Positions 1 through 14,859 of a stretch of 64,000 nucleotides of DNA are shown piece after piece. The stretch's first letter is position 1. The number at the start of each line of letters is the position of its first letter. The position numbers and the translations under genes are program-made. Origin of the DNA: Gammaproteobacteria bacterium (GTDB lineage: Bacteria > Pseudomonadota > Gammaproteobacteria > JAIEPX01); contig JAIEPX010000012.1 in assembly GCA_019748175.1 (NCBI GenBank), positions 132,413-196,412 on the forward strand, given 5' to 3'. The notes under the pieces were generated by a model. That model made no database searches. It was not told where the DNA came from and worked only from the letters and a program-made list of their open reading frames with translations.

Positions 1-144
1 CATATCAAGGTCAGTTTTGTTGGATATTTCTATAGATCCAATGGTAACGCCAGCTCGATTGATGACTGCTTCCTTCGCGTCAGCTGCAAAAACTGAACTG
101 TGAGCAAGCAGAACTAAACTGAATCCTAAAATTTGTACTTTCAT
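1..144 (-). CDS. Partial CDS for the 5' end of a secreted protein of unknown function. The N-terminus MKVQILGFSLVLLAHSSVFA-ADAKEAV is a signal peptide. The gene runs off the left edge of the window.
   Basis: There is an ATG at 144..142 on the minus strand, preceded by AGGAAGAGG. The translation gives a hydrophobic h-region and a VFA-A cleavage motif. It is absent from the ORF track because only 48 codons lie in the window. Confidence 0.45.
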   Translation of the reverse strand, partial: MKVQILGFSLVLLAHSSVFAADAKEAVINRAGVTIGSIEISNKTDLDM

Positions 145-225
145 TGCCTCTTCCTTGAACAATAAACTTATCTTTAAGTAAAGCAGACCTTATGAGATTG
201 TCAAATTATGCTCTGTCTTTATCTA
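43..225. repeat. Left copy of a ~183-bp imperfect direct repeat, about 90% identical to 12793-12975.
   Basis: Direct alignment of 43-225 with 12793-12975 shows only scattered substitutions. The copy contains the RBS and first ~34 codons of the minus-strand secreted-protein gene, plus a TTGACA on the minus strand. Confidence 0.8.
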
Positions 226-237
226 TGAAAGAAATAA

Positions 238-2646
238 CTAAGACTTCACTCTAAGCGATAAAAGCCATGCTGATAACATATGAGTTAAACCAATACTCGT
301 AATAGGTTTTGTCAGTACATTATCGATTCCAGCTTGCAAGCACTTTTCTCTATCATTTTCGGAAGCATACGCAGTTAATGCTATAACGGGCGTATGATGA
401 TCATTTTTTTCTAACTCTCGAATTTTTTGTGTCACAACAAAACCATCCATATCCGGCAGCCCAATGTCCATTAAGATAAGATCGTAGGTATTCTTTTTAA
501 ACAACTTCAAGGCTAATATGCCATTATCAGCTACATCCGCTTTACAGCCCAAATCTTTCAAGAAATGAAGGACTACTCGTTGATTAATTAAATTATCTTC
601 GACGAGAAGAATTTTTGGATTAATATCGGCGAAAAGTTTTGAGGCATGTGTTAAACTTGCTTGATATTTTTCCCAGCAAGATGCTAAGTGCACTATAAAT
701 TTATTGTCATAACCGGCAATATGAATGAAATCAAAAATACCATTATCATTCTTTTCTAATTTTTGATTCTTATCAGAATAAAGTAATAACATAGGATTAT
801 ATAACGCAGGAAGAGCCTCCTTTAACTTGCCTAAATTTCCTTTATTATAAAAATGTGAATGGTTTGAAAGCAATATTAGCTGATAATGATGATTGCGTTT
901 TGCGGCATTTTCAAGAGCGTCAAATGCACTCGAACTTGACACTAAAGATACTGAAGAAGTATGGATAAGCTGTAATATTTTTGTGCCCACACTAAGATCA
1001 TCATCTACAATTAAAATTTTCACCTGAGCATACTTGCTTGCCCATAAATTTGATTTGTTAAGTTGAGGCTGGGCTGTAAATGTTAAATTTACTGTAAATG
1101 TTGTTCCCTTATTGAATTTACTATCAACGAAAATTTCACCTTTCATTAGTTCTACCAATTGCTTCACGATGGCAAGACCTAAACCTGTACCACTATGAAG
1201 CTTACTATAGGAAGAATCTAACTGACGAAAGCGGTCGAAAATTACCTCAATTTGATCTGAGGGAATACCAATACCTGTATCTTTAATGATAAAAGACAAT
1301 GTATATTTTCTATTCGACCTCTCTAAAAACTTCACTATCAAATCAGCTTTACCATGATCCGTAAACTTAACCGCATTACCTAATATATTAAGTAGTATTT
1401 GGTAAAGTCTTTGACTATCTCCAAGTAACAATGTCGGTACATCACCATCTATTTTTGTAGATAAAGTAATATTCTTTTGACCCGCCAGTGTTGATACTTG
1501 TTTTATTACACTATCAATTATGTACACTAAATCGAAAGGAGTATTAATGATTTCTAATTCACCGGCCTCAAGCTTTGAAAGATCAAGAATACTGTTGATA
1601 AGTGATAATAATGTTTTTCCAGAATTAGTGATATCTTCAACTAACAAGATTTGATCAGTTGAAAGCTTTTGTCTTGATAAAAGTTCGGTCATCCCGATGA
1701 TACCATTTAATGGCGTTCTTAATTCATGGCTAACCGTCGCCAAAAAGTCAGATTTGGCTTGATTTGCTATTTCAGCCTTTTCACGTGCCTCAACAAGTTC
1801 ATTTTCTTTCTTAACACGATCAGTAATATCTGTAGAAATACCAATGACACCGACAATCTTGCCATGTTCATTTCTAAACGGCACTCGAGTTGTAGTTTGG
1901 TAAATGATTTCACCATTAGAAGTTGTTAAGAAATTGATATTTTCGTTGGGTTTACCTGTTTTCATTACTTCCAGGTCATTTGATCGCCACAATTTTGCCT
2001 GTTCTTTTGGCCAATTTCGAATTTTAGCCATATCATAATACGTTAAACCTCTTACTTCTTTTCGAGAATTAAAACCGAGAATCTTTGCTAAATTATCATT
2101 ACAGCCTAGATTTGCAGAATTTTTATCGACCCAATAAACGTTAGAAGGTAAATGAGCTAAGATTCTATCTAACTGAAGTGCTGCAAGTTTAGTTTCTTTT
2201 TCAGCGGACCTAATCATTTTTTCCAATTGTTTTTCTTTCTTATTATGCTCTGTGATATCGATCATCTGAACGATGATGCCAGTCACTTTCTTTTTCACAC
2301 AGATAGGCTTATGTATACAAGACACTAGAATTTTTTTGCCTTTTTTCAACGGTATCCAGAGCACATGCTCATATTTTTTATTGTTTTCGAGCACTTTATT
2401 ATCATAAGACCTTAATTCTTCGAAGACACCCGCGTGAATTAAACTATTTTTTTGTATCTTGCTATAGTTTTTACCAAGTAATTTTTGTTTCGTTTTTAGG
2501 CCTAATAATTTCAACATGCTGTCATTGCAGCCTAAAATCACACCTGAGGCATCTTGCCAATAGATATAACTTGATAAATTCGCTATAATTTCACAAATAT
2601 TTTTTGTTTTCATGTCACCCTTCATGTTACTCAACGATGAGATCAT
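238..2646 (-). CDS. Hybrid sensor histidine kinase/response regulator. It has two PAS domains, HisKA and HATPase_c domains, a degenerate pseudo-receiver and a C-terminal REC domain.
   Basis: The H-box is HELRTPLNGIIGMTELL and the G-box is GTGLGLAIVKQL. A second REC domain has LILMDIGLPDMDG and a conserved TAYA/K. The PAS-like N-terminal halves contain YWQDASG and YWVDKNS. AGGAG lies 8 nt before the ATG at 2646. Confidence 0.85.
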   Translation of the reverse strand: MISSLSNMKGDMKTKNICEIIANLSSYIYWQDASGVILGCNDSMLKLLGLKTKQKLLGKNYSKIQKNSLIHAGVFEELRSYDNKVLENNKKYEHVLWIPLKKGKKILVSCIHKPICVKKKVTGIIVQMIDITEHNKKEKQLEKMIRSAEKETKLAALQLDRILAHLPSNVYWVDKNSANLGCNDNLAKILGFNSRKEVRGLTYYDMAKIRNWPKEQAKLWRSNDLEVMKTGKPNENINFLTTSNGEIIYQTTTRVPFRNEHGKIVGVIGISTDITDRVKKENELVEAREKAEIANQAKSDFLATVSHELRTPLNGIIGMTELLSRQKLSTDQILLVEDITNSGKTLLSLINSILDLSKLEAGELEIINTPFDLVYIIDSVIKQVSTLAGQKNITLSTKIDGDVPTLLLGDSQRLYQILLNILGNAVKFTDHGKADLIVKFLERSNRKYTLSFIIKDTGIGIPSDQIEVIFDRFRQLDSSYSKLHSGTGLGLAIVKQLVELMKGEIFVDSKFNKGTTFTVNLTFTAQPQLNKSNLWASKYAQVKILIVDDDLSVGTKILQLIHTSSVSLVSSSSAFDALENAAKRNHHYQLILLSNHSHFYNKGNLGKLKEALPALYNPMLLLYSDKNQKLEKNDNGIFDFIHIAGYDNKFIVHLASCWEKYQASLTHASKLFADINPKILLVEDNLINQRVVLHFLKDLGCKADVADNGILALKLFKKNTYDLILMDIGLPDMDGFVVTQKIRELEKNDHHTPVIALTAYASENDREKCLQAGIDNVLTKPITSIGLTHMLSAWLLSLRVKS

Positions 2647-2702
2647 CCTAAAACTCCTGTAATCTCTGGATACAGAATAACGTTACATGCCACACTATTA
2701 CG

Positions 2703-2730
2703 TTTACATGTTAATATATTCCAGGCTATA
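2703..2730 (+). promoter_or_regulatory. Putative sigma70-like promoter for the NRPS gene: TTTACA, a 16-nt spacer, then TATAAT.
   Basis: TTTACA is at 2703-2708 and TATAAT at 2725-2730, within the 200-bp divergent intergenic region. No experimental support is available. Confidence 0.3.
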
Positions 2731-2847
2731 ATGAAACAATTTAAGAGACTTGCTTTCGTCCTGGATACACTTTACATCGTAGCGACCGTCAACTAAATAC
2801 TCTATCAAAGCAAGATTAGTATCTTACCTTCAGGATGTATTGATAAT

Positions 2848-5800
2848 ATGGCAAAGGCTACAAGTACTGAAAGTATTAAATGCGTCGTTATAGGCAAAAA
2901 CAGCCTCGCTTTGGAATGTGCGAGCCGGTTGTTTAGTAACCCAAATTTCACTCTAGTTTCAATTGTTTCACCTGATCCACAGCTCGAATCACTGGCTGTA
3001 TCGAATAATATTCCTTACTATAAAAACACAGACACTTGGATTCAATCAGAGCTAAAAACCAAAATTGATTATTTATTCAGCATAATTCATGAAGATATTT
3101 TGACTGACGAGATCCTCCAGCTACCTCGCCGGGGAGCTATCAATTTCCATGATAGCCCATTGCCCCGTTATGCAGGACTCCATGCAACATCATGGGCAAT
3201 TCTAAACAATGAAAGCACCCATGGAGTTACTTGGCATATGATGTCAGGCAAAGTTGATTCGGGGGATATAGTAAAACAAAAAAGAGTTGAAATACTCCCA
3301 GACGATACAGCACTCGTACTAAACATGAAATGTTATGAAGCCGGTTTAGAACTATTCAACGAACTGTTAGAAGATCTTCAACGTGTTTATCTTATCACTC
3401 AACCTCAAGATTTATCTAAGAGAACTTACTACGGATACACTGCTAAACCTCCACTAGGCGGAATCATTAATTTTAATGATACCAGCCAAAATATCTATCG
3501 CAGTTGGCGATCAATGTATTTTGGACATACTCTCAATGATTTTGCTTCCTGTAAGTTTTTTATCGGAACCCGATGTTTCATCATCCAGGAAATGCAAATT
3601 AAGGCCTCCAGTTCAGATTGTGAACCTGGTCAAATAATAGAAATTACTAATGACCACATTCAAATAGCCACCAAAACAGGCGATGTATTCATAACCTCAC
3701 TAAAAACCCTGGATGGGCACCCTTGTAATTTTCTTAATCTAAAAAAATTGACCCAATTAAGTGAAGGAGACACTATTTCTCACCATGATATCGCTCTAAT
3801 GGAAAAAATATCTTCTAAAATTACCCAATTATTTCCACATGAACGTTACTGGGTGGATGAGCTTTGCGCCATTAATCCCACAAGCTTTCCATACTTTTCT
3901 CATCCGACTACAAAATTTAAAATAACAAGCCAAAAAAAGCTTGATCTTGAACCTCTACTGAGCCACAAAAATCAACATTTTGATTGGGAAATTTCTTATC
4001 TATGCATTCTGTCAATATATTTATTTCGCATCACAAATAAAAATAACATAACACTAGGCATTTACAGACCACAACAAAATACTGAAATCAACACAAGTTT
4101 CTTTTCAGATATCGTTCCACTCAATCTGCATTTCGAACCTCAAGACACGTTTTTAGATTTATATGCTCAGATTGAAAAAAAAATAAATCAAGTAACTACA
4201 CATTCAACATTTTTAAATGACATTACCTATCGTTATCCTGACTTAACTGATATATCAACTAGTCATCCAGGAATATATCCGTGCCTAATCGAGTATATTA
4301 ACAAAAAAGAACCTCAATTAAAGTCACAACTAGAATTAACAACCTCATATTTCAAATTGACAATTGACACTGCCAACAGGGAATACGTACTTGCACTAGG
4401 TTCTTCTAAAAACGAAGAAATTAAACCTAAAGAATTATTAGATAAAATACATTCTCATCTCTTTAATTTGCTTGATTCTATCAAAAATAATATTTTAACA
4501 CCAATTATTGCTCATTCATATTTAGATAAAAAAGAAATTCAACAATTACTACCTGCAAAGATAGATGATACAAAAAATATTCTTAATTCAAACGTTATAC
4601 AACTCTTTAAGGAGCAAGTTAATCGTTATGGAAATCATCTCAGCATAATTTCCTCTGAACACTCATTAACTTATGAAGATCTGGATAACCAATCTAATCA
4701 CCTTGCAGCGTATATTCTAGAGCATGTAAAATCCCCGCAAAAATCAATAGCTTTAATAATGAATCAGTCTGATACTGCAATTATATCGATGCTTGCAATA
4801 CTAAAAATTAATTGCATATATGTTCCACTAAACCCAGATAATCCTACAAACAGACTGCGATATATTCTTAAAGACGTTGATGCTGCAATGGTTCTCACTA
4901 ATACCCAGAATTTACAAGTAACTCATGCATGCACTGAAAACCTCAATATTCCGGTACTTAATGTTGAGAATACTGAAATACTTGACCAATACTCACTACC
5001 TACAAATCATCAAGTCAAAATATTACCTGATGACCTGGCGTACATATTATACACTTCAGGATCAACAGGTGATCCCAAGGGCGTTCAGATTTACCATAAA
5101 GGAATTGTGCGATTAGTCAAGGAGCAAAATTATGTACAGTTTACTCAAAATGATATTGTTGCTCAATTCACTACGCTAATTTTTGATGTATCAACTTTTG
5201 AAATTTGGGGAGCATTACTGAACGGATCCACCTTATTTATCATTGATAAAACTCTAGGTTTAGAACCAGAAAAATTACATAATATTATTAGAGATAATTG
5301 TACAATCTTGTTCATGACCCCAGCAGTTTTCGTGGAAGTTTATAAAGCCGAGCCAGATACTTTTGATAACCTGAGAATATTGATTCTAGGAGGAGAAGTT
5401 GTTCGAAGTGAAGATGTTCGAAGGCTTTTAAAGAGAAAAGAAGAGCTGAATCTAAATCTCACTATCATAAACGGGTATGGCCCTACTGAAAATACAACTT
5501 GGTCAACATATTATACTATCGATAAACTCAAACCAGGTCGTGATAGCATCCCAATTGGAAAATCTATTTCATACAGCTCAGCTTATATACTTGATAATTA
5601 TTTCAATCTACTTCCAGTCGGAGTTCCAGGCGAATTGTATCTAGGAGGACTTGGAATCGCTAAAGGTTATATTAACCACGAACAACTGACTCAAAAAGCA
5701 TTTATTAAAGACCCGTTTTCAAAGGGCAATACACTGTATAAAACTGGCGACATAGTGAAAATGCTACCAGATGGGAACATTCTTTTCATTTCTCGAATAG

Positions 5801-8800
5801 ATAGTCAAGTTAAAATAAAAGGAATTAGAGTCGAATTAGGTGAAATTGAAAGTTGGCTGTTAAAATATCATTCTGTCAAACAGGGAGTTGTCGTCTCCAA
5901 ACCAATTAAATCAAACAGACATCAATTAATTGCATATATTGTACCAGAAAGTCAACATTTCAACATAGTTGAATTGCAACATTACTTGTCTCAACATTTG
6001 CCAGAATACATGGTACCCTTACAGTATGTCATCATCGATAATTTTCCTTTGTCACCTAGCAAAAAGATTGACCATTCAAAACTGCCTGATCCATTACCTC
6101 TTGATGCAAAGAACTATCAAGCTCCACGAAATGATAAAGAAGCCTTATTAGTCAAAATATGGAGTCAAATATTAAGAATAAAACACATAGGCAGAAATGA
6201 TAATTTTTTTGCAATGGGTGGCGACTCAATCATCGCAATGCAAATAATCACAAAAGCGTACCATGATGGCTGGAAATTAAAAGCAGCTGATATTTTTCAT
6301 TACCCCTGCATATCAAAACTTGCCCCACGTCTAAAACCAATACAATCAAAGACGTCAAATGAAAGTATAACAGACACGATTGAAGGAAATATCCCCTTAA
6401 CACCAATTCAACATTGGTTTTTCGAGTCTGCATATTCCATGACATCAAGTTTTAGTCAATATGTATTACTTAAATTAGATGCAAAACCAGATGAATCAAT
6501 TATTGAAAAAACCTTCGACGCACTTATTCAACACCATGACATCTTACGAACCTTCTATGAGAATTCAGAAGGTCACTGGCAACAAACTATTAATAGCATA
6601 GTTGAACCATTCAAAGTAAATCACGACACACTTGCCAGCAAAAAGTATGACTCTAAAATTGCTGAAATGGAAAGTAAAATATCTAAAACATACTCTAAAT
6701 TTAAACTAGACCAGCCTCCTTTAGTGAGATGTGTACTGTTTAGCGGATCAAATGATAATTACCTCGCAATAATCGCACACCATCTAGTAATTGACGGGGT
6801 TTCTTGGAGAATATTCTTAGACGATTTCTTCATGGCATACCATACTTATTATCATAACAAAACAATTCCACTTCCAATAAAATCATCCTCTTTTAAATCA
6901 TGGAGTAAGTACCTCTGTGAATTTTCATCATCAATTACCTTGTTAAATGAAACCAATTACTGGCTACAGCAATCATCTGATAATGAAATACCAACTGATT
7001 TTAGACGAGGCGAAAATACTGAGAAAAATGCAAAAACTATCGAAAGTGAACTCGACCTTACCAATATAAGCTTAACATATAAGCAAGTAAGCGCGAGGGA
7101 TATATTAACTACAGCATTGGCAATCACATTGTGTGATTATTTTGATCTAAATGAAATTAATTTTTACATGGAGAGCCATGGTCGTGAAACCTTCAATAGC
7201 AAACTTGATTTATCACGGTCTATGGGATGGTTTACCTCTCTTTCACCTATAAAATTATCATTAGAATCTTCACAAAATAAAATTCAATATTTAAACATGC
7301 TCAGAAATGTCCGTAAAAAAATTGGCAATATTCCGCGACAAGGCATTGGCTTTGGATTAGTCAAATATCTTACAGAAGATCTTAACACTCGCAAAATAGT
7401 GAATGACATCTTAGTTTCCTCAATGTGTTTTAATTTTCTTGGGAATTTTGATGCTGGGATCAATACTAGTGACATGCAATTGGTTGGACGCCCAATTAGA
7501 TTAACAGACTCGGCGACTTCTTTACGGCAATTTTTGATTGAATTAACAGCGTGGATCAAAAACGATAAGTTACATTTGGAATGGAAATATAGTGCTAATT
7601 ATTACAAAGCCTCTACAATCCAAGCAGTTTCCAACCACTACATAAAAAATATTAATTCTATCGTTTCTCAATGTATCAATTCACTATCACAAACGTTGGT
7701 GTCTCACGACTTCCCACTAGCCTCCCTCACTCAGGAACAATTAAGTATCTGCATTACTAAATACCCTAATTTAGAAAATATTGCTCAGCTTTCTTCGTTA
7801 CAAAGTGGTTTGTTGTTCCACCACTTACAATATCCTGACAGTAATATTTATCACTCTCAATATATTTGGACAGATACCCGCGCTTTAGATTTGCGGGTAT
7901 TTAAAAAGGCTTGGGAAACCATTATCAAACGCCATAGTATATTTAGAACCACCTTCCTTTGGAAACATTTCAAATCTCCTATTCAGATTGTCGATTCAAC
8001 GATCAAATTACCGTGGAAAAATTATATTTGCTCTTCATTATCACGAGAAGCAAAAAAGGCGATGATAAATGCGATACTTCGCGAAGATCAAGAACGTTAT
8101 TTTGACTTTTCAGATCATCCTCTGATGCGATTAAGTATTATTCAAACCAACCCAAGTACATACGTCATAGTTTGGACACATCATCATATTTTACTTGGCG
8201 CGTCTAGTATAAAAAATGTCATTTCAGAATTATATCTAATATACCACGCCCTTCTTTCAGATCAACAATACTACCTACCTCCAGCGGTACCTTTTTCCGA
8301 ATACATCGCTTATCAAAATCAAAAATTTAATCATAAATTAAGTAAGCGTTTTTGGATAAAATACTTAAATAGATTTAATAGTATCGCAATAACAAAATTA
8401 CTCGGTGAAATTCATGAAAATACATCCCCGGACTTTCATCAACATGAGTTCGTAATACCCGATAAGTACGCATCTAAAATCAAAAAGTTTTCAAAGTCCT
8501 GCAACACCTCGCTTAACACCGTAATGTTATACGCATGGGCTTTACTGATCTCACGATACACTGACTCATTGGACATTAGCGTCGGTGTTGCGATTTCAAC
8601 AAGACCTAATGATTATTTCACTAATGAAAGCATCATCGGTCCGCTCATTAATACACTACCGTGCAGAATTACACTCGAAGATGATGAGCCATTGCAGCAA
8701 TCACTTAAGCGGATAAATGACAACATCCTTGATATAACACAACATTCTCATACAGCACTGTTAGATATCTATAAGTGGCTTAAACGAAATACACAAGACC

Positions 8801-11800
8801 AACTTTTCGATACGCTTTTCGTTTTTGAGAATTACCCCTTGGATTTTATTGATGAACATATCAGTGAATTAAAAGTCAACGCGATTACTCATTATCCACT
8901 CGTCCTTAATGTATACCCTCATGATAAAATTCAACTGGTTATGACATATAACAAAAATGTTATATGTACAACTATAATTGAAAACATTATGACAAATTAT
9001 TACCACACCCTCTGCGAAATTATTGATGATAATATACGTAATACTAAGGATATTGATATACTTTCAATTACTGAATCATCATTGCTAAAAAACTCTTGGA
9101 ACCATCGAAAATCAGATTATCCTCATTTCACTATCACGAACCTTTTTACGGAAATAGCAAACCTATATCCATCTAAAACTGCGATCACCTATCAAAATGA
9201 AAAACTGACGTACGATAAACTTGATAAAGTGACCAATCGCTGGGCTAATTATCTCCTTGAAAATGGTTTAAACAAGGGTGATGTTGTCGCTGTTTATATT
9301 GATAGAAGTATTGAAATGGTAATTGCCCTTTTAGCAATACTTAAAGCTGGGGGTGTTTATTTACCAATTGATACAACTTACCCCACCTATAGGGTTAATT
9401 ACATACTCGATGATGCGGGTGCTAAATTCATATTCACTCAATCTTCATTATTAGGTATTATCGATCCTAAATATCTAAGCCTATCCATTGATATTCTTAA
9501 TAGCAACCTTATTACAACTGTTTATGACAACCTCCCATTAATAGAATTATCCTATAGTGATCTGATTTATATCATTTATACCTCAGGCACTACAGGCTTG
9601 CCAAAAGGCATACAGATTCAACACAAAAGTGTAATCAATACAATCTACTCAATATTTAGAGAATTAAAACTTTCTTCAAATGATAAATTACTATCATTCA
9701 CAAGTATCTCATTTGACATATCTGCACTCGAAATATTTGGGCCATTGCTTTGGGGAATGGAGCTTGAAATTGCAAGCTCTGAATCTACAAAAACTAATTC
9801 TTCTCTCACTAAACTTATGAACGAAAGCTCTCCAACTATAATTCAAGGTACCCCTAGTCTTCTATTCTTAATGGTAAATGCGGGTTGGAAACCTAAAAAA
9901 GGAATTAAAATCATCTCGGGTGGAGAGACGCTCACGCAAAGCTTGGCTAATTCAATCTTAGCTATGGGTGCAAATTTATGGAATGTATACGGACCTACAG
10001 AAACGACAATTTGGTCTACTATCTCTCGTGTATATTCAAATAAAAAGATCGTAATAGGTAAACCTATTGCAAATACAGCTATCTATATCTTAGATCAAAG
10101 ACAAAAAATAGCACCGATTGGCGTTCCAGGAGAGCTTGTAATTGGTGGAGATGGTATAACTCCAGGATACATTAATAGACCCGAACTAAATAAGAAACGT
10201 TTTATTCCAAACCCCTATTCTAGCTCAGTAGCAGAAAGACTGTATCGCACAGGTGATTTAGCTAGGTGGCTACCTTCAGGCGAACTAGAGTTTATTGATC
10301 GACTAGACAATCAAGTTAAAATACGTGGGTATCGAATTGAACTAGAAGAAATTCGTACTATCTTACTAAAATTCACATCGATCAAAGATTGTGTTGTATT
10401 AAAAGTTGGGGATAATTATAATGAAGCTCATTTGAAAGCATTTTTCACTTTAAAAAATCCAAATATGAATTTTGACATATCAGACTTACGCACGCATCTC
10501 GCTTCATATTTACCGTACTACATGATTCCTGATGAGTTTATTCCCGTTGAAGGGATACCAATCAATACAAATGGAAAGGTCGATAAAGAGCAAATCTTGC
10601 AACTATATGCATCTCATCATAAAAAAGACATCGGGAATTATAACCCCGTTGAAAACCCGACCGAACAACTAATCTTAAATCTATTTAATAAAGTACTCTC
10701 TGCAAAAAATATTGAACCTAATGATAGTTTTTTTGAACTCGGTGGTAATTCTATCTCAGCAATTCAGATATTATCGAATATACAAGATTGCTTCTCAATA
10801 TCTTTATCTTTGCCTGATATTTTAACCTTACAAACTCCACGACAATTAGCCAAAGCTATAATTCATAAAAAATTTCAAAATCTTGATAGCTACGAAAACA
10901 TCACTTCTCCTATAGTTGGTTTACAATTAAAAGGAGATAAACCACCATTATTTTTAATTCACCCTGTAGGTGGAACAATATTCTGGTTTGTTAAACTCGC
11001 ACAATATTTAGGTAAAGATCGACCAATTTATGGATTACAAGATCCTGCTTTATCTACAGAGAGAGCTCATTTTTCTACTTTCGAAGCAATGGCTACATTC
11101 TATGCTAAAGAAATTAAAAACATTCATCCAAATGGTCCTTATCTTCTGGCAGGTGCATCCTTCGGTGCAAATATGGCAGCAGAAATCGCAAAACAATTGA
11201 TCGCTGAAGGTAAAAAAGTCTTATTTGTAGGACTACTAGATGGGTGGGCAGAATACCCTGACGAAGTTTCTACACATCGTTTTTTGAAAAAAGAGATGAA
11301 AGCGCAGTATAATGAGCTAAAGAAGAAACTTCCTGAAGTTAATAATAACAGTATTAAACCTATTATTGACTTTGCATGGCATCGTTCACATTTACTTGAT
11401 GCCTATAGTCTCGATTGGATTGATTGCCCTCTAGTACTATTCAAAGCGAAAAGTACCTTAAGTATTTTCTCTGACATCGAGTCCCCAAGTAACCACTGGA
11501 CAGGAAGGACTCCATACTTAAAAACCATTATAGCCCCAGGTAACCACGAAACTATGTTTTTCGATCCAAATGTTGAAACACTAGCCAAACAAATAAACAC
11601 TGCTATTCATGATAGTGAAAATATGGGAAATCACGATTCTCACAATAATGCATTTTTCAATGATTCAGATATATCTTATCCAAGAATAACTGTGATTGAG
11701 ATGTTCGAATCCATTGCTGAAAAAGAATATAGCTCATTTGCCGCAGTAAACAATGGGATATGCTTGACGTATGAAAAATTAAATAATCTGGCAAACCAAC

Positions 11801-12792
11801 TCTCTCACTATCTTATAGATTTGGATATCACACAAGGTGATATAGTTGGTATTTGCCTGAATCGTGATTTTGATTTACTCATTGCTATTCTGGCTGTCTT
11901 AAAATCTGGCGCCGCTTTTTCACCCATAAACTGTGATATAACTCCTAGTAGTATCGATTCTGTCCAACTAAGTTGTAGAGCAATCATTACAGAAAAAGAT
12001 TTTCTGAGAAAATTCAGTACTCTTGATAACAAAATGATCTGCCTCGATAGGGACTGGCAGTTTATTCGACTCAAATCAAGTGATAACCCATTAATACCTA
12101 TTAATCTCGATGATATAGCAATCGTTATACCAACATCTCACTCACAGCACAGCCAAACACGCATTTTGGTCAGCCACAGAAACATCAGTATTTTAACACA
12201 ATGGTCTTTGTCACAATTCACAAAAGAGGAACTATCTGGCGTATTAGCTTCAAATCACCATTACAATGAAATGTCGTTATTTGAAATATTCCCAGCTTTA
12301 TGTGCTGGAGGAACAGTACATCTTGTAAGAGATATAGAAAATCTATCGGAAGTCCCTTTTTCCAATAATATTACACTGATTTCTATCACACCAGCACAGT
12401 TAAATAACCTTTTATATACTGATCAATTACCTCAATCTGTACGAACTATCATTTTACAAACTCGCTCGGTGGATAATGCTGCTATCTCAAATATTGTAAA
12501 TACATCCCACGTTATTAAATTATGCAACGCCTTTATCAATATGGAAGTCGGCCAACTCACTCCAGGATTATTACCGAAACCTATCAATACACAGACAGTC
12601 ATTGGAAAGCCAATACCTAACGCAAAATTAGTCGTACTTAATAAAAACTTAGAGACCCTCCCTGCTGGATCCCCTTCAGAAATGAACAAATTTGGATATG
12701 TACTCTGTTTAGGCTATTTGAATTTTTCTGATTTCACAACTGAAGAATTACTTACCAATCCTAATTTACAATCCTCAATTTCAAATGAGTAA
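2848..12792 (+). CDS. Bimodular non-ribosomal peptide synthetase with an N-terminal formyltransferase-like (F) domain. Domain order is F-(unassigned ~280 aa)-A1-T1-E-C-A2-T2-TE, followed by a degenerate A-domain N-terminal stub.
   Basis: The F domain has FHDSPLPRYAG and HMMSGKVDSGDIV (Fmt-like). A1 has LAYILYTSGSTGDPKG, NGYGPTE, YKTGD and KIKGIRVELGEIE. T1 has FFAMGGDSI and the E domain has HHLVIDGVSWRIF. The C domain has HHILLGASS. A2 has YIIYTSGTTGLPKG, YGPTETT, YRTGD and KIRGYRIELEEI. T2 has FFELGGNSI and the TE has GASFGAN. Residues ~2945-3314 keep A1/A2-like cores (LTYEKL, LKSGAAFSPIN) but lack cores A3 and A5-A10. Confidence 0.9.
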   Translation: MAKATSTESIKCVVIGKNSLALECASRLFSNPNFTLVSIVSPDPQLESLAVSNNIPYYKNTDTWIQSELKTKIDYLFSIIHEDILTDEILQLPRRGAINFHDSPLPRYAGLHATSWAILNNESTHGVTWHMMSGKVDSGDIVKQKRVEILPDDTALVLNMKCYEAGLELFNELLEDLQRVYLITQPQDLSKRTYYGYTAKPPLGGIINFNDTSQNIYRSWRSMYFGHTLNDFASCKFFIGTRCFIIQEMQIKASSSDCEPGQIIEITNDHIQIATKTGDVFITSLKTLDGHPCNFLNLKKLTQLSEGDTISHHDIALMEKISSKITQLFPHERYWVDELCAINPTSFPYFSHPTTKFKITSQKKLDLEPLLSHKNQHFDWEISYLCILSIYLFRITNKNNITLGIYRPQQNTEINTSFFSDIVPLNLHFEPQDTFLDLYAQIEKKINQVTTHSTFLNDITYRYPDLTDISTSHPGIYPCLIEYINKKEPQLKSQLELTTSYFKLTIDTANREYVLALGSSKNEEIKPKELLDKIHSHLFNLLDSIKNNILTPIIAHSYLDKKEIQQLLPAKIDDTKNILNSNVIQLFKEQVNRYGNHLSIISSEHSLTYEDLDNQSNHLAAYILEHVKSPQKSIALIMNQSDTAIISMLAILKINCIYVPLNPDNPTNRLRYILKDVDAAMVLTNTQNLQVTHACTENLNIPVLNVENTEILDQYSLPTNHQVKILPDDLAYILYTSGSTGDPKGVQIYHKGIVRLVKEQNYVQFTQNDIVAQFTTLIFDVSTFEIWGALLNGSTLFIIDKTLGLEPEKLHNIIRDNCTILFMTPAVFVEVYKAEPDTFDNLRILILGGEVVRSEDVRRLLKRKEELNLNLTIINGYGPTENTTWSTYYTIDKLKPGRDSIPIGKSISYSSAYILDNYFNLLPVGVPGELYLGGLGIAKGYINHEQLTQKAFIKDPFSKGNTLYKTGDIVKMLPDGNILFISRIDSQVKIKGIRVELGEIESWLLKYHSVKQGVVVSKPIKSNRHQLIAYIVPESQHFNIVELQHYLSQHLPEYMVPLQYVIIDNFPLSPSKKIDHSKLPDPLPLDAKNYQAPRNDKEALLVKIWSQILRIKHIGRNDNFFAMGGDSIIAMQIITKAYHDGWKLKAADIFHYPCISKLAPRLKPIQSKTSNESITDTIEGNIPLTPIQHWFFESAYSMTSSFSQYVLLKLDAKPDESIIEKTFDALIQHHDILRTFYENSEGHWQQTINSIVEPFKVNHDTLASKKYDSKIAEMESKISKTYSKFKLDQPPLVRCVLFSGSNDNYLAIIAHHLVIDGVSWRIFLDDFFMAYHTYYHNKTIPLPIKSSSFKSWSKYLCEFSSSITLLNETNYWLQQSSDNEIPTDFRRGENTEKNAKTIESELDLTNISLTYKQVSARDILTTALAITLCDYFDLNEINFYMESHGRETFNSKLDLSRSMGWFTSLSPIKLSLESSQNKIQYLNMLRNVRKKIGNIPRQGIGFGLVKYLTEDLNTRKIVNDILVSSMCFNFLGNFDAGINTSDMQLVGRPIRLTDSATSLRQFLIELTAWIKNDKLHLEWKYSANYYKASTIQAVSNHYIKNINSIVSQCINSLSQTLVSHDFPLASLTQEQLSICITKYPNLENIAQLSSLQSGLLFHHLQYPDSNIYHSQYIWTDTRALDLRVFKKAWETIIKRHSIFRTTFLWKHFKSPIQIVDSTIKLPWKNYICSSLSREAKKAMINAILREDQERYFDFSDHPLMRLSIIQTNPSTYVIVWTHHHILLGASSIKNVISELYLIYHALLSDQQYYLPPAVPFSEYIAYQNQKFNHKLSKRFWIKYLNRFNSIAITKLLGEIHENTSPDFHQHEFVIPDKYASKIKKFSKSCNTSLNTVMLYAWALLISRYTDSLDISVGVAISTRPNDYFTNESIIGPLINTLPCRITLEDDEPLQQSLKRINDNILDITQHSHTALLDIYKWLKRNTQDQLFDTLFVFENYPLDFIDEHISELKVNAITHYPLVLNVYPHDKIQLVMTYNKNVICTTIIENIMTNYYHTLCEIIDDNIRNTKDIDILSITESSLLKNSWNHRKSDYPHFTITNLFTEIANLYPSKTAITYQNEKLTYDKLDKVTNRWANYLLENGLNKGDVVAVYIDRSIEMVIALLAILKAGGVYLPIDTTYPTYRVNYILDDAGAKFIFTQSSLLGIIDPKYLSLSIDILNSNLITTVYDNLPLIELSYSDLIYIIYTSGTTGLPKGIQIQHKSVINTIYSIFRELKLSSNDKLLSFTSISFDISALEIFGPLLWGMELEIASSESTKTNSSLTKLMNESSPTIIQGTPSLLFLMVNAGWKPKKGIKIISGGETLTQSLANSILAMGANLWNVYGPTETTIWSTISRVYSNKKIVIGKPIANTAIYILDQRQKIAPIGVPGELVIGGDGITPGYINRPELNKKRFIPNPYSSSVAERLYRTGDLARWLPSGELEFIDRLDNQVKIRGYRIELEEIRTILLKFTSIKDCVVLKVGDNYNEAHLKAFFTLKNPNMNFDISDLRTHLASYLPYYMIPDEFIPVEGIPINTNGKVDKEQILQLYASHHKKDIGNYNPVENPTEQLILNLFNKVLSAKNIEPNDSFFELGGNSISAIQILSNIQDCFSISLSLPDILTLQTPRQLAKAIIHKKFQNLDSYENITSPIVGLQLKGDKPPLFLIHPVGGTIFWFVKLAQYLGKDRPIYGLQDPALSTERAHFSTFEAMATFYAKEIKNIHPNGPYLLAGASFGANMAAEIAKQLIAEGKKVLFVGLLDGWAEYPDEVSTHRFLKKEMKAQYNELKKKLPEVNNNSIKPIIDFAWHRSHLLDAYSLDWIDCPLVLFKAKSTLSIFSDIESPSNHWTGRTPYLKTIIAPGNHETMFFDPNVETLAKQINTAIHDSENMGNHDSHNNAFFNDSDISYPRITVIEMFESIAEKEYSSFAAVNNGICLTYEKLNNLANQLSHYLIDLDITQGDIVGICLNRDFDLLIAILAVLKSGAAFSPINCDITPSSIDSVQLSCRAIITEKDFLRKFSTLDNKMICLDRDWQFIRLKSSDNPLIPINLDDIAIVIPTSHSQHSQTRILVSHRNISILTQWSLSQFTKEELSGVLASNHHYNEMSLFEIFPALCAGGTVHLVRDIENLSEVPFSNNITLISITPAQLNNLLYTDQLPQSVRTIILQTRSVDNAAISNIVNTSHVIKLCNAFINMEVGQLTPGLLPKPINTQTVIGKPIPNAKLVVLNKNLETLPAGSPSEMNKFGYVLCLGYLNFSDFTTEELLTNPNLQSSISNE

Positions 12793-12894
12793 GGTGACGT
12801 CAGCTCGATTGATGACTGCTTCCTTCGCATCTGCCGCAAAAACTGAACTTTGAGCAAGTAGAGCTAAACTGAATCCTAAAATTTGTACTTTCAT
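12781..12894 (-). pseudogene. Truncated remnant of the secreted-protein gene 5' end (37 codons) inside the right-hand repeat copy. It overlaps the NRPS stop codon.
   Basis: The minus-strand ATG at 12894 gives MKVQILGFSLALLAQSSVFAADAKEAVINRADVTLLI*, a near-identical signal peptide to the 1..144 ORF. It ends after ~34 homologous residues. Confidence 0.5.
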
Positions 12895-12975
12895 TGCCTC
12901 ATCCTTGAACAATAAACCTATCTCTAAGTAAAGCAGACCTTTAGAGATTGTCACATTGCGCTGTGTCTTCGTCTA
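12793..12975. repeat. Right copy of the ~183-bp direct repeat. It begins 1 nt after the NRPS TAA.
   Basis: It aligns along its whole length to 43-225. The flanks on both sides are unrelated. Confidence 0.8.
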
Positions 12976-13914: not shown

Positions 13915-14859
13915 TTAGTCTAAACATAACAGAGATTCGCGCGTAAAATATTCTTCTTGATAATGAGAGCGAACCCATTTTTTATAAAGTTCTAGTGCCT
14001 CAGTTTCAATACTTGCGATTCGCGTAGAATTGCCTTTATTATGCACTATAGTATTCTTAATATAGTCTTTCATTGTTAAAATTGAATCAAATGATTCATT
14101 TAAGAGTGATGCAAGCTGATTTCCATGTAATGCATTGAATGAATCATTTAAATAGTACTTCCCAAGCCTTTCCGCAAGAAGTATAGCGAAATAGGCTTCA
14201 TAAAGATATTTGTAGAAAAGTCTGCCGCTCTTTTCAACTTGGCCAAAATACTTGAATAAAGGAAGATTGAGATTAGCCAACATCAAAAATCCTGCAGCCC
14301 CGAATTGCCTTCCAATAATATATAAGTTACCGCTAAATTTATTATACTCACTAAGATCAACTTTTTTATCTTCCGCTAGCGCCCTATCTGCTAAAACAAT
14401 AATTTCATTTAAATAATCACAAAATGCGTGAAAATTATAGCTTGAGAGAGCTTTCATTAAGTAAAGTTTGGATGTGGCTTGACCTGAAGTAGTCTGTACT
14501 CTTTGTAACTCAAGATGTTTACTATAATAAAAAACACCTTTAATTAAAAAATAACTTAATAGGCTAGACTGTGGCTTTAATTGATAACATGCAAGTTGAC
14601 CATCCAATTCTAACAAAGATAGATAATCTTCTGAAGTGATAAGCGTATCCCAAAAACTACTGAGCGTATCGTCACAGCAAAGCGTCTCTAAATCTGCTTC
14701 CAGACTCGTGGCTTCCAAAAACATGGGAAGTGACTGAACTGCATAATATTGAACAAAATCAATAAGAACGTCGTTCGACTGTTTTTTAGCCAACACTCTT
14801 TGATGTAAATCTCTAAATTTTTCTACAATAGAATTATGCGATAATCCTTTCTTATTCAT
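13915..14859 (-). CDS. Hypothetical protein of 314 aa.
   Basis: There is a long ORF with a strong AAGGAGG RBS before the ATG at 14859. No recognisable motif was found. Confidence 0.55.
   Translation of the reverse strand: MNKKGLSHNSIVEKFRDLHQRVLAKKQSNDVLIDFVQYYAVQSLPMFLEATSLEADLETLCCDDTLSSFWDTLITSEDYLSLLELDGQLACYQLKPQSSLLSYFLIKGVFYYSKHLELQRVQTTSGQATSKLYLMKALSSYNFHAFCDYLNEIIVLADRALAEDKKVDLSEYNKFSGNLYIIGRQFGAAGFLMLANLNLPLFKYFGQVEKSGRLFYKYLYEAYFAILLAERLGKYYLNDSFNALHGNQLASLLNESFDSILTMKDYIKNTIVHNKGNSTRIASIETEALELYKKWVRSHYQEEYFTRESLLCLD

Follow-up and report, generated by a model that had tools for sequence, protein, structure and literature searches.

The 64,000-nucleotide stretch analysed here (the window; contig JAIEPX010000012.1 of the gammaproteobacterial assembly GCA_019748175.1, positions 132,413 to 196,412) carries a nonribosomal peptide synthetase (NRPS) gene with an unusual 3′ end. 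The gene lies on the plus strand at 2848–12792 and, by the list of open reading frames (ORFs) and its translation, is a single ORF of 3314 aa. Pfam matches give the domain order formyltransferase, unassigned region, adenylation (A) domain A1, carrier (T) domain T1, E-type and C-type condensation domains, A2, T2, thioesterase (TE) and, at the very end, a further A-type domain. This last domain, which is catalytically dead for the reasons given below, is labelled A* (NRPS residues 2945–3314). The thioesterase (aa about 2699–2905, plus strand 10942–11562, PF00975 match) has its serine motif GASFG at nt 11152–11166 and its histidine motif GNHETMFF at nt 11539–11562. It leads into A* through a linker (11620–11712, plus strand) of variable length, poorly conserved among homologues (17–39% identity) and with a low predicted local distance difference test score (pLDDT) in a two-domain model. 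The initial annotation of this DNA regarded a thioesterase followed by an A-type domain as atypical, and our analysis supports this.

A* alone (nt 11680–12789, 370 aa) was subjected to the profile scan that the initial annotation had suggested for residues 2945–3314. An AMP-binding match was obtained (PF00501, 93.9 bits with a cut-off of 29.9, profile positions 5–383 of 384); Pfam returned no AMP-binding_C (PF13193) match for this piece and no carrier domain (PF00550) after the thioesterase. The earlier description of the stretch as a degenerate, C-terminally incomplete A domain is borne out by this result. On the amino-acid adenylation profile TIGR01733 (cut-off 317.4), A* falls short at 140.9 bits, whereas the protein's own A1 and A2 reach 386.7 and 404.2 bits.

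The individual motifs tell the same story. Motif location confirmed the A1- and A2-like cores and the degenerate A3 where they had been placed. Thus, A1 (LTYEKLNNLANQL, nt 11764–11802) and A2 (LKSGAAFSPIN, nt 11899–11931) are intact; the A3 P-loop (IVIPTSHSQHSQTR, nt 12121–12162) is degenerate and reads PTSHSQHSQTR, as opposed to the functional (T/S)SG(T/S)TGxPKG. The A4 region, formerly described as 'FD(x)S-like', is present, but it reads EMSLFEIF, with Glu replacing the Asp of FDxS. The claim that A5–A10 are absent holds for A7–A10 and fails for A5 and A6, of which alignment to the protein's own A1 and A2 reveals positional remnants: NAFINME at nt 12526–12552 for A5 (canonical NxYGPTE) and SPSEMNKFGYVLCLGYLN at nt 12670–12723 for A6. 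The protein stops 9 residues beyond the Asn-Pro found ahead of A7 in active domains, so A* has no A7 (Y(R/K)TGD), no A8, no C-terminal subdomain (A9/A10) and no carrier domain. That these parts might be encoded downstream or in another frame was considered and rejected, as no remnant is present downstream. A* has no functional P-loop, A5, A7 or A8, neither the C-terminal subdomain nor its A10 lysine, and no carrier domain downstream; as judged from its motifs, it is therefore unable to adenylate or load a substrate.

Three homologues with the same C-terminal architecture were found. The first, L001, was identified by genome scan in an uncultured gammaproteobacterial metagenome-assembled genome and is a 3289-aa orthologue that is 56% identical over its whole length. 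It has the same degenerate A domain after the thioesterase and ends within 2 residues of the window protein's end; its gene is followed by a 99-nt spacer and then bamD, tamA and tamB. The second, L006 (P0033), is a full-length orthologue of 3357 aa and the sole useful match from an exhaustive phmmer search that covered 1.84 billion representatives, with a ranking dominated by multi-A megasynthases. Its A* is about 45 aa longer than that of the window, and in it A6 (GELYISGD) can be recognised, A7 is mutated (FRTGSL) and an A8-like stretch follows. The stop codon of its gene overlaps the stop of the convergent djlA, gshA lying beyond in a djlA/gshA flank. The third, L007 (P0174), comes from a short contig and lacks its N-terminal part; downstream of its gene lie an EamA gene and djlA. 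Its A* is about 125 aa longer than the window's, keeps the A4 Asp (YDQS), has YKTNDK at A7 and GRLDRGVILKG at A8, and includes a C-terminal subdomain that extends to just before A10. The three full-length proteins (window, L001 and L006) are about equidistant at 55–56% identity, and their thioesterases are 71–73% identical. The initial annotation had expected its reading to fall if conserved, intact homologues had the same C-terminal region as a defined functional domain; L001, L006 and L007 carry this region, and we take them as such a refutation.

The four A* domains are dead in the same way. The P-loop glycines and lysine are lost in all four, where A3 reads PTSHSQHSQTR, PSPLSEYTPYR, PSSASQVGPPG and YCSVTSTNPQG; A5 is likewise degenerate throughout (NAFINME, NAFIQID, NVYLQTE, NGYIKSE); and in no case does a carrier domain follow. 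All four also lack the A10 lysine, and A7 is either absent (window, L001) or mutated (L006, L007). The endpoints form a series, before A10 in L007, at A8 in L006 and before A7 in the window and L001. TIGR01733 scores fall from 290.0 in L007 through 243.5 in L006 to 140.9 bits in the window, and L001 gives no match at 1e-30. The four genes sit in different contexts (bamD/tamA/tamB, djlA/gshA and EamA/djlA for L001, L006 and L007, and a direct repeat in the window). Since four lineages share a dead P-loop and a dead A5 and none has a carrier domain, the inactivation of A*, together with the loss of anything downstream, is placed by this comparison before the divergence of the lineages and before the insertion of the window's gene described below.

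Could A* nevertheless be active in a non-canonical manner, adenylating or binding a substrate and working in trans with a separate C-terminal subdomain or carrier protein? The conserved A1 and A2 would be in keeping with this, as would the fact that three of the four domains have an acidic residue (E, E and D, with V in L001) where the alpha-amino-binding Asp belongs. We consider it highly improbable, since the P-loop, A5, A7 and A10 defects just listed affect all four domains, the scores lie below the TIGR01733 cut-off, and no separate A-subdomain or carrier gene is found in the window's cassette or adjoining any of the four genes.

A homologue with an intact third module, which the initial annotation had proposed to look for, was not found in limited searches that yielded four family members in total. 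With the A* stub as query, a word-indexed protein search returned just generic A or A-T proteins at ≤31% identity; plasmid tblastn gave just generic NRPS matches, also at ≤31% identity, and a metagenome scan gave just one unrelated A-T-TE protein (L005).

The 3′ end of the window's gene coincides with one arm of a 183-nt direct repeat (43–225 and 12793–12975, 90% identical). The initial annotation, which had the ORF end 1 nt before the right copy, is confirmed on this adjacency: the TAA stop codon (12790–12792, plus strand) directly abuts the right copy, with 0 nt between. The left copy (43–225) takes in the start of a small secreted-protein gene on the minus strand (ATG at 144), namely its promoter region and codons 1–34; the ORF (MKVQILGFSL..., a signal-peptide gene) runs off the window's left end. 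The right copy (12793–12975) holds an orphaned 5′ fragment of 34 codons, again on the minus strand (ATG at 12894), which continues with Leu-Leu-Ile-stop and so runs into the NRPS 3′ end at 12781.

The origin of this arrangement was clarified by a syntenic relative, L008, found via an 80%-identical homologue of a flank protein and sharing 84–93% nucleotide identity in the flanks. The flank protein itself has a 100%-identical NCBI counterpart, locus tag K2X50_06815, from a metagenome-assembled genome recorded as a Gammaproteobacteria bacterium. L008 represents the empty site, with a 163-aa secreted-protein gene that is intact (9441–9932) and stands directly beside the flank gene. By blastn, window 2–210 matches L008 9712–9920 and window 12794–14934 matches L008 9754–11876. 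Because L008 has the gene intact and both repeat copies align there (9754–9936), window 226–12792 is an insertion flanked by a 183-nt target duplication, and the insertion point is codon 34 of the secreted-protein gene. The inserted cassette, absent from L008 by blastn and alignment, is 12,567 bp long and consists of two genes, the NRPS gene and a kinase gene. On the left it begins 12 nt beyond the stop codon of the kinase gene, and on the right it finishes with that of the NRPS gene; in the three-way DNA alignment with the empty site, TAA is the last triplet of inserted DNA where the target reads AAT. The repeat copies are closer to each other (89.6% identity) than either is to L008 (left 83.1%, right 80.9%), from which it follows that the duplication arose after the split from L008's lineage and is not recent. 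The G+C content of the island is 0.345, against 0.388 for window 12976–64000. Neither a recombinase nor a transposase is present in the island, which by the ORF list and Pfam contains only the kinase and NRPS genes; one mechanism that would fit is Campbell-type integration of a circle with homology to the target.

These data bear directly on the explanation offered by the initial annotation, namely that the recombination event behind the repeat junction severed an ancestral third module in this genome and left the stub as debris. The abutting stop codon speaks for such a cut, and so do the lengths of the L006 and L007 domains, the lack of any A7-to-T remnant downstream and the fact that no plus-strand terminator was found after the NRPS stop. 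Relative to L006 and L007, the window NRPS may indeed have lost its last 45–125 codons at or before the insertion. The near-identical endpoint of L001 argues against codon loss at the insertion, albeit not decisively: the chance that some pair of four endpoints agrees within two codons is about 0.2, a rough estimate rather than a computed value. As an account of the whole domain, we find the junction explanation unsupported and very unlikely. First, L001, L006 and L007 have the same dead domain in different genomic surroundings, and with P-loop and A5 dead in four lineages and no carrier domain in any, no working third module existed when the cassette arrived. Second, L001 stops within 2 residues of the window protein's end, before a 99-nt spacer, and has no repeat. 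Third, the TAA belongs to the island and not to the target DNA. Fourth, the stub is under purifying selection, as detailed next. At most, the last 45–125 codons would have been lost at insertion.

Over aa 2956–3200, A* is 47–55% identical across the three orthologue pairs, with 0 gaps. The same pairs show 50–51% identity for the formyltransferase (up to 2 gaps per pair), 52–53% for the E-type domain (up to 1 gap per pair) and 54–59% for A2 (up to 2 gaps per pair), as opposed to 27–34%, with 4 gaps per pair, for the unassigned region (aa 301–590). The proportion of nonsynonymous sites that differ (pN) is 0.33–0.35 in the conserved part of A* against a saturated synonymous proportion (pS) of about 0.8. 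By codon position, identity is highest at the second (p2, 0.69–0.81), lower at the first (p1, 0.58–0.64) and lowest at the third (p3, 0.36–0.45), a pattern also shown by the catalytic domains. The reading frame carries 0 in-frame stops in all four A* regions, against 8–65 in each of the other five frames, at 34–39% G+C. When neutral evolution was simulated to the observed third-position divergence, merely 11–17% amino-acid identity remained and about 20 stops had accumulated; even with 5–7% neutral change, which is of the order of the repeat-copy divergence since the insertion, the simulated chance of no stop was 2–6%.

The description of the stretch as 'module debris' is not borne out by these figures, and the relaxed constraint predicted for it was not seen in the codon-position pattern over aa 2956–3200, synonymous divergence (dS) being saturated. 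From the sequence comparisons, the N-terminal ~245–290 residues of A* are under purifying selection. The C-terminal end behaves differently: the last ~80–110 residues are 41% identical to L006 without gaps and 17–26% identical to L001 with 22 gap positions, and the last ~80 residues look to be under weak constraint. We therefore divide A* into a conserved, confidently folded part (aa 2945–3232, plus strand 11680–12543), delimited by PF00501, orthologue identity, AlphaFold2 and Foldseek, and a weakly constrained tail with the A5 and A6 remnants (aa 3233–3314, plus strand 12544–12789), delimited by alignment and low pLDDT. A possible 21-codon internal deletion in the window protein (NLQSSISNE, compared with NLYYLGSCNKE in L006) was too weak to claim.

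The more distant L007 provides a further comparison. Its A* is 42–50% identical to those of the window and L006, yet its thioesterase is merely 38–40% identical to theirs and no closer to them than generic Legionella A-T-TE proteins are. Either A* would be the more constrained part, or the upstream modules were exchanged with A* staying in frame. The neighbourhoods of L007 (42–2960) and L006 (9830–19903) are syntenic, with djlA 66% and gshA 69% identical; an EamA gene sits between the NRPS gene and djlA in L007. Between these two proteins, A* is 50% identical, the segment of the A2 C-terminus, T2 and thioesterase is 33% identical, and the thioesterases are not specifically related. This contrast suggests either that the upstream modules were replaced in mosaic fashion or that L006 underwent a deletion.

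A different explanation would take A* for a functionless vestige of an ancient fusion or truncation, which persists for want of clean removal or because an exposed, misfolding stump would be deleterious. Its progressively shorter ends and falling A-domain profile scores are what such a remnant might show, as are the poorly conserved, indel-bearing tail in L001, the disorder modelled for the tail (see below) and the lack of a nameable partner or activity. Yet the first 245 aa are as conserved as the catalytic domains and free of indels in three lineages whose synonymous sites are saturated. A nonsense mutation after the thioesterase would be an easy route to loss, and it is seen in none of the four lineages; and the A* of L007 is better conserved than the thioesterase upstream of it. 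On balance, a vestige is in our judgement unlikely.

A structural prediction was obtained with AlphaFold2 from a 20-sequence alignment. The pLDDT is 80–98 for A* residues 1–288 (aa 2945–3232), confidence is low at the dead P-loop, and values drop below 50 for A* residues 289–370. Searched with Foldseek against the PDB, the model matched exclusively NRPS A-core structures, among them McyA2, GrsB1-Acore, TycA, LgrA and PheA, with template modelling (TM) scores of 0.75–0.83 at 18–26% identity; A* is thus predicted to have an A-core fold. It belongs to an A-domain subclass with the signature 'GVLAS...FDLSVFE', the active members of which (P0001 and P0002, 30–31% identity) keep an intact A3 to A5. 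An origin of A* as a copy of A1 or A2 was rejected, given its 22–23% identity to these as against 30–31% to an unrelated active subclass.

Taken together, we propose that the post-thioesterase stretch is an inherited, catalytically dead A-core pseudo-domain, a family trait of a group of Legionellales NRPSs and not a product of the local junction, a reading to which we assign a probability of about 0.65. The N-terminal two thirds of A* would be kept for a non-catalytic job, candidates being the stabilising or positioning of the thioesterase during release of a predicted N-formyl dipeptide, self-association, or partner docking. The C-terminal third would be dispensable, with deletions and rearrangements at the gene edge wearing it away from its 3′ end; such erosion would produce the observed endpoint series.

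Several points weigh against this proposal. The conservation of A* could reflect selection against a misfolding C-terminal extension alone. The endpoint series and the falling TIGR01733 scores resemble ongoing decay. The window ORF ends at the insertion boundary and the L006 stop overlaps that of djlA, so junction events may have set individual endpoints. The family members found number four, and the word-indexed protein search gave nothing above about 1200 aa, so relatives with an intact module may have been missed. With dS saturated, a Nei-Gojobori dN/dS estimate failed, and pN, codon-position identity and simulation were used instead. Finally, an AlphaFold2 model of the thioesterase with A*, built on a shallow alignment, was poor (predicted TM score, pTM, 0.45) and uninformative on the interface.

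A bolder version of the pseudo-domain proposal holds A* to be an undescribed non-catalytic accessory domain, a dead A-core turned portable C-terminal module that follows thioesterases of different lineages (the window type and the L007 type). It would provide a scaffold or docking platform on which the product is released, the protein self-associates or a partner binds, and there may be a link to the hybrid kinase encoded beside the NRPS. We put this forward tentatively and would not expect it to hold in so full a form.

The kinase in question is a hybrid sensor histidine kinase with PAS, HisKA, HATPase and REC domains by Pfam, encoded on the minus strand at 238–2646, divergently from the NRPS gene. 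It is co-inherited with the NRPS in three genomes, at 62–68% identity and always divergent: the L006 kinase (7271–9658) is 62% identical, and a kinase remnant upstream of the L001 NRPS gene (44–1681) is 68% identical. In L006, an Sfp-type phosphopantetheinyl transferase gene lies beside the kinase gene; none was found in the window. L008 has a different divergent kinase–NRPS pair (1–5933), located about 3.5 kb away across its secreted-protein gene; the kinase is 38% identical, and the NRPS has methyltransferase domains and an N-terminal region 25% identical to its counterpart in the window NRPS. Kinase–NRPS cassettes may have a hot spot in this neighbourhood.

Other features of the locus were recorded alongside. 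The ~290-aa region between the formyltransferase and A1 (aa 301–590, window 3748–4617, plus strand) has no Pfam or NCBIfam match and is the least conserved part of the protein, yet it is present with few gaps in all three orthologues. The first condensation-type domain has an epimerase-like HHLVIDG motif. In the second (window about 8500–8530), the HHxxxDG motif lacks its Asp and reads HHHILLGASS; L001 and L006 both have HHHILLGGWS there, so the Asp loss is kept across the orthologues. A terminator-like minus-strand hairpin (window 12651–12674) lies inside the A* tail, downstream of the orphaned right-repeat promoter. Further along the window, a DUF5630 protein (13915–14859, minus strand) and a 1007-aa ankyrin-repeat protein (23606–26629, plus strand) are encoded next to recA, alaS and mutS; gene content of this kind is seen in Legionella-like intracellular bacteria. 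The alanyl-tRNA synthetase gene of L008 (16753–19484) is called as three pieces, probably through assembly frameshift errors.

For product prediction, an A-type domain after the thioesterase in these Legionellales synthetases should be annotated neither as a third module nor as assembly or recombination damage, and the predicted product remains a formylated dipeptide. For enzymology, A* would add a conserved case in which an inactive catalytic fold is retained, here in the last position of an assembly line; should a scaffold or docking role be confirmed, this would matter for NRPS engineering and for understanding the organisation of thioesterase release. As to gene transfer, the empty site provides a dated example of a kinase and NRPS cassette moving between Legionellales genomes without a recombinase of its own.

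Our literature searches turned up no account of a conserved dead A-core that follows a thioesterase, of a TE-A* architecture, or of this Legionellales NRPS family. The obvious reference is the canonical NRPS adenylation domain (ANL superfamily, PF00501/TIGR01733; PheA of GrsA, PDB 1AMU), with which A* shares the family, the predicted N-terminal core fold, A1 and A2. Unlike it, A* has a dead A3 and A5, is without A7, A8, A10, a C-terminal subdomain or a carrier, and sits after a thioesterase.

Dead domains kept in working synthetases are not without precedent. In the fungal siderophore synthetases SidD/Nps6, a truncated, inactive 'dA' domain is retained; it lacks about 290 N-terminal residues, and its module keeps a carrier domain that is loaded by another A domain (PMC10192304). 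A* has the opposite polarity, having retained the N-terminal ~290 residues and lost the C-terminus, and it is not followed by a carrier domain. The X-domain of Tcp12, a dead condensation fold, recruits oxygenases, and the pseudo-Asub of StsA is likewise non-catalytic (PMC10510592). These two are precedents for a dead NRPS fold kept in a structural or recruiting role, although they involve another fold (condensation type) or another part of the A domain, and another position. ObiF1 offers a parallel in position: here an MbtH-like domain follows the thioesterase, folds back onto the assembly line and activates an upstream A domain (PMC10510592). There the appendage is small and MbtH-like, whereas A* is a dead A-core of roughly 300 residues. 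At its other end, the window NRPS shares a formyltransferase start with the formylating initiation modules of the LgrA type (linear gramicidin synthetase), the F-A structures of which match the A* fold simply through their A-cores. It differs from that type in its extra ~290-aa region between the formyltransferase and A1, in being dimodular, and in ending with a thioesterase followed by A*.

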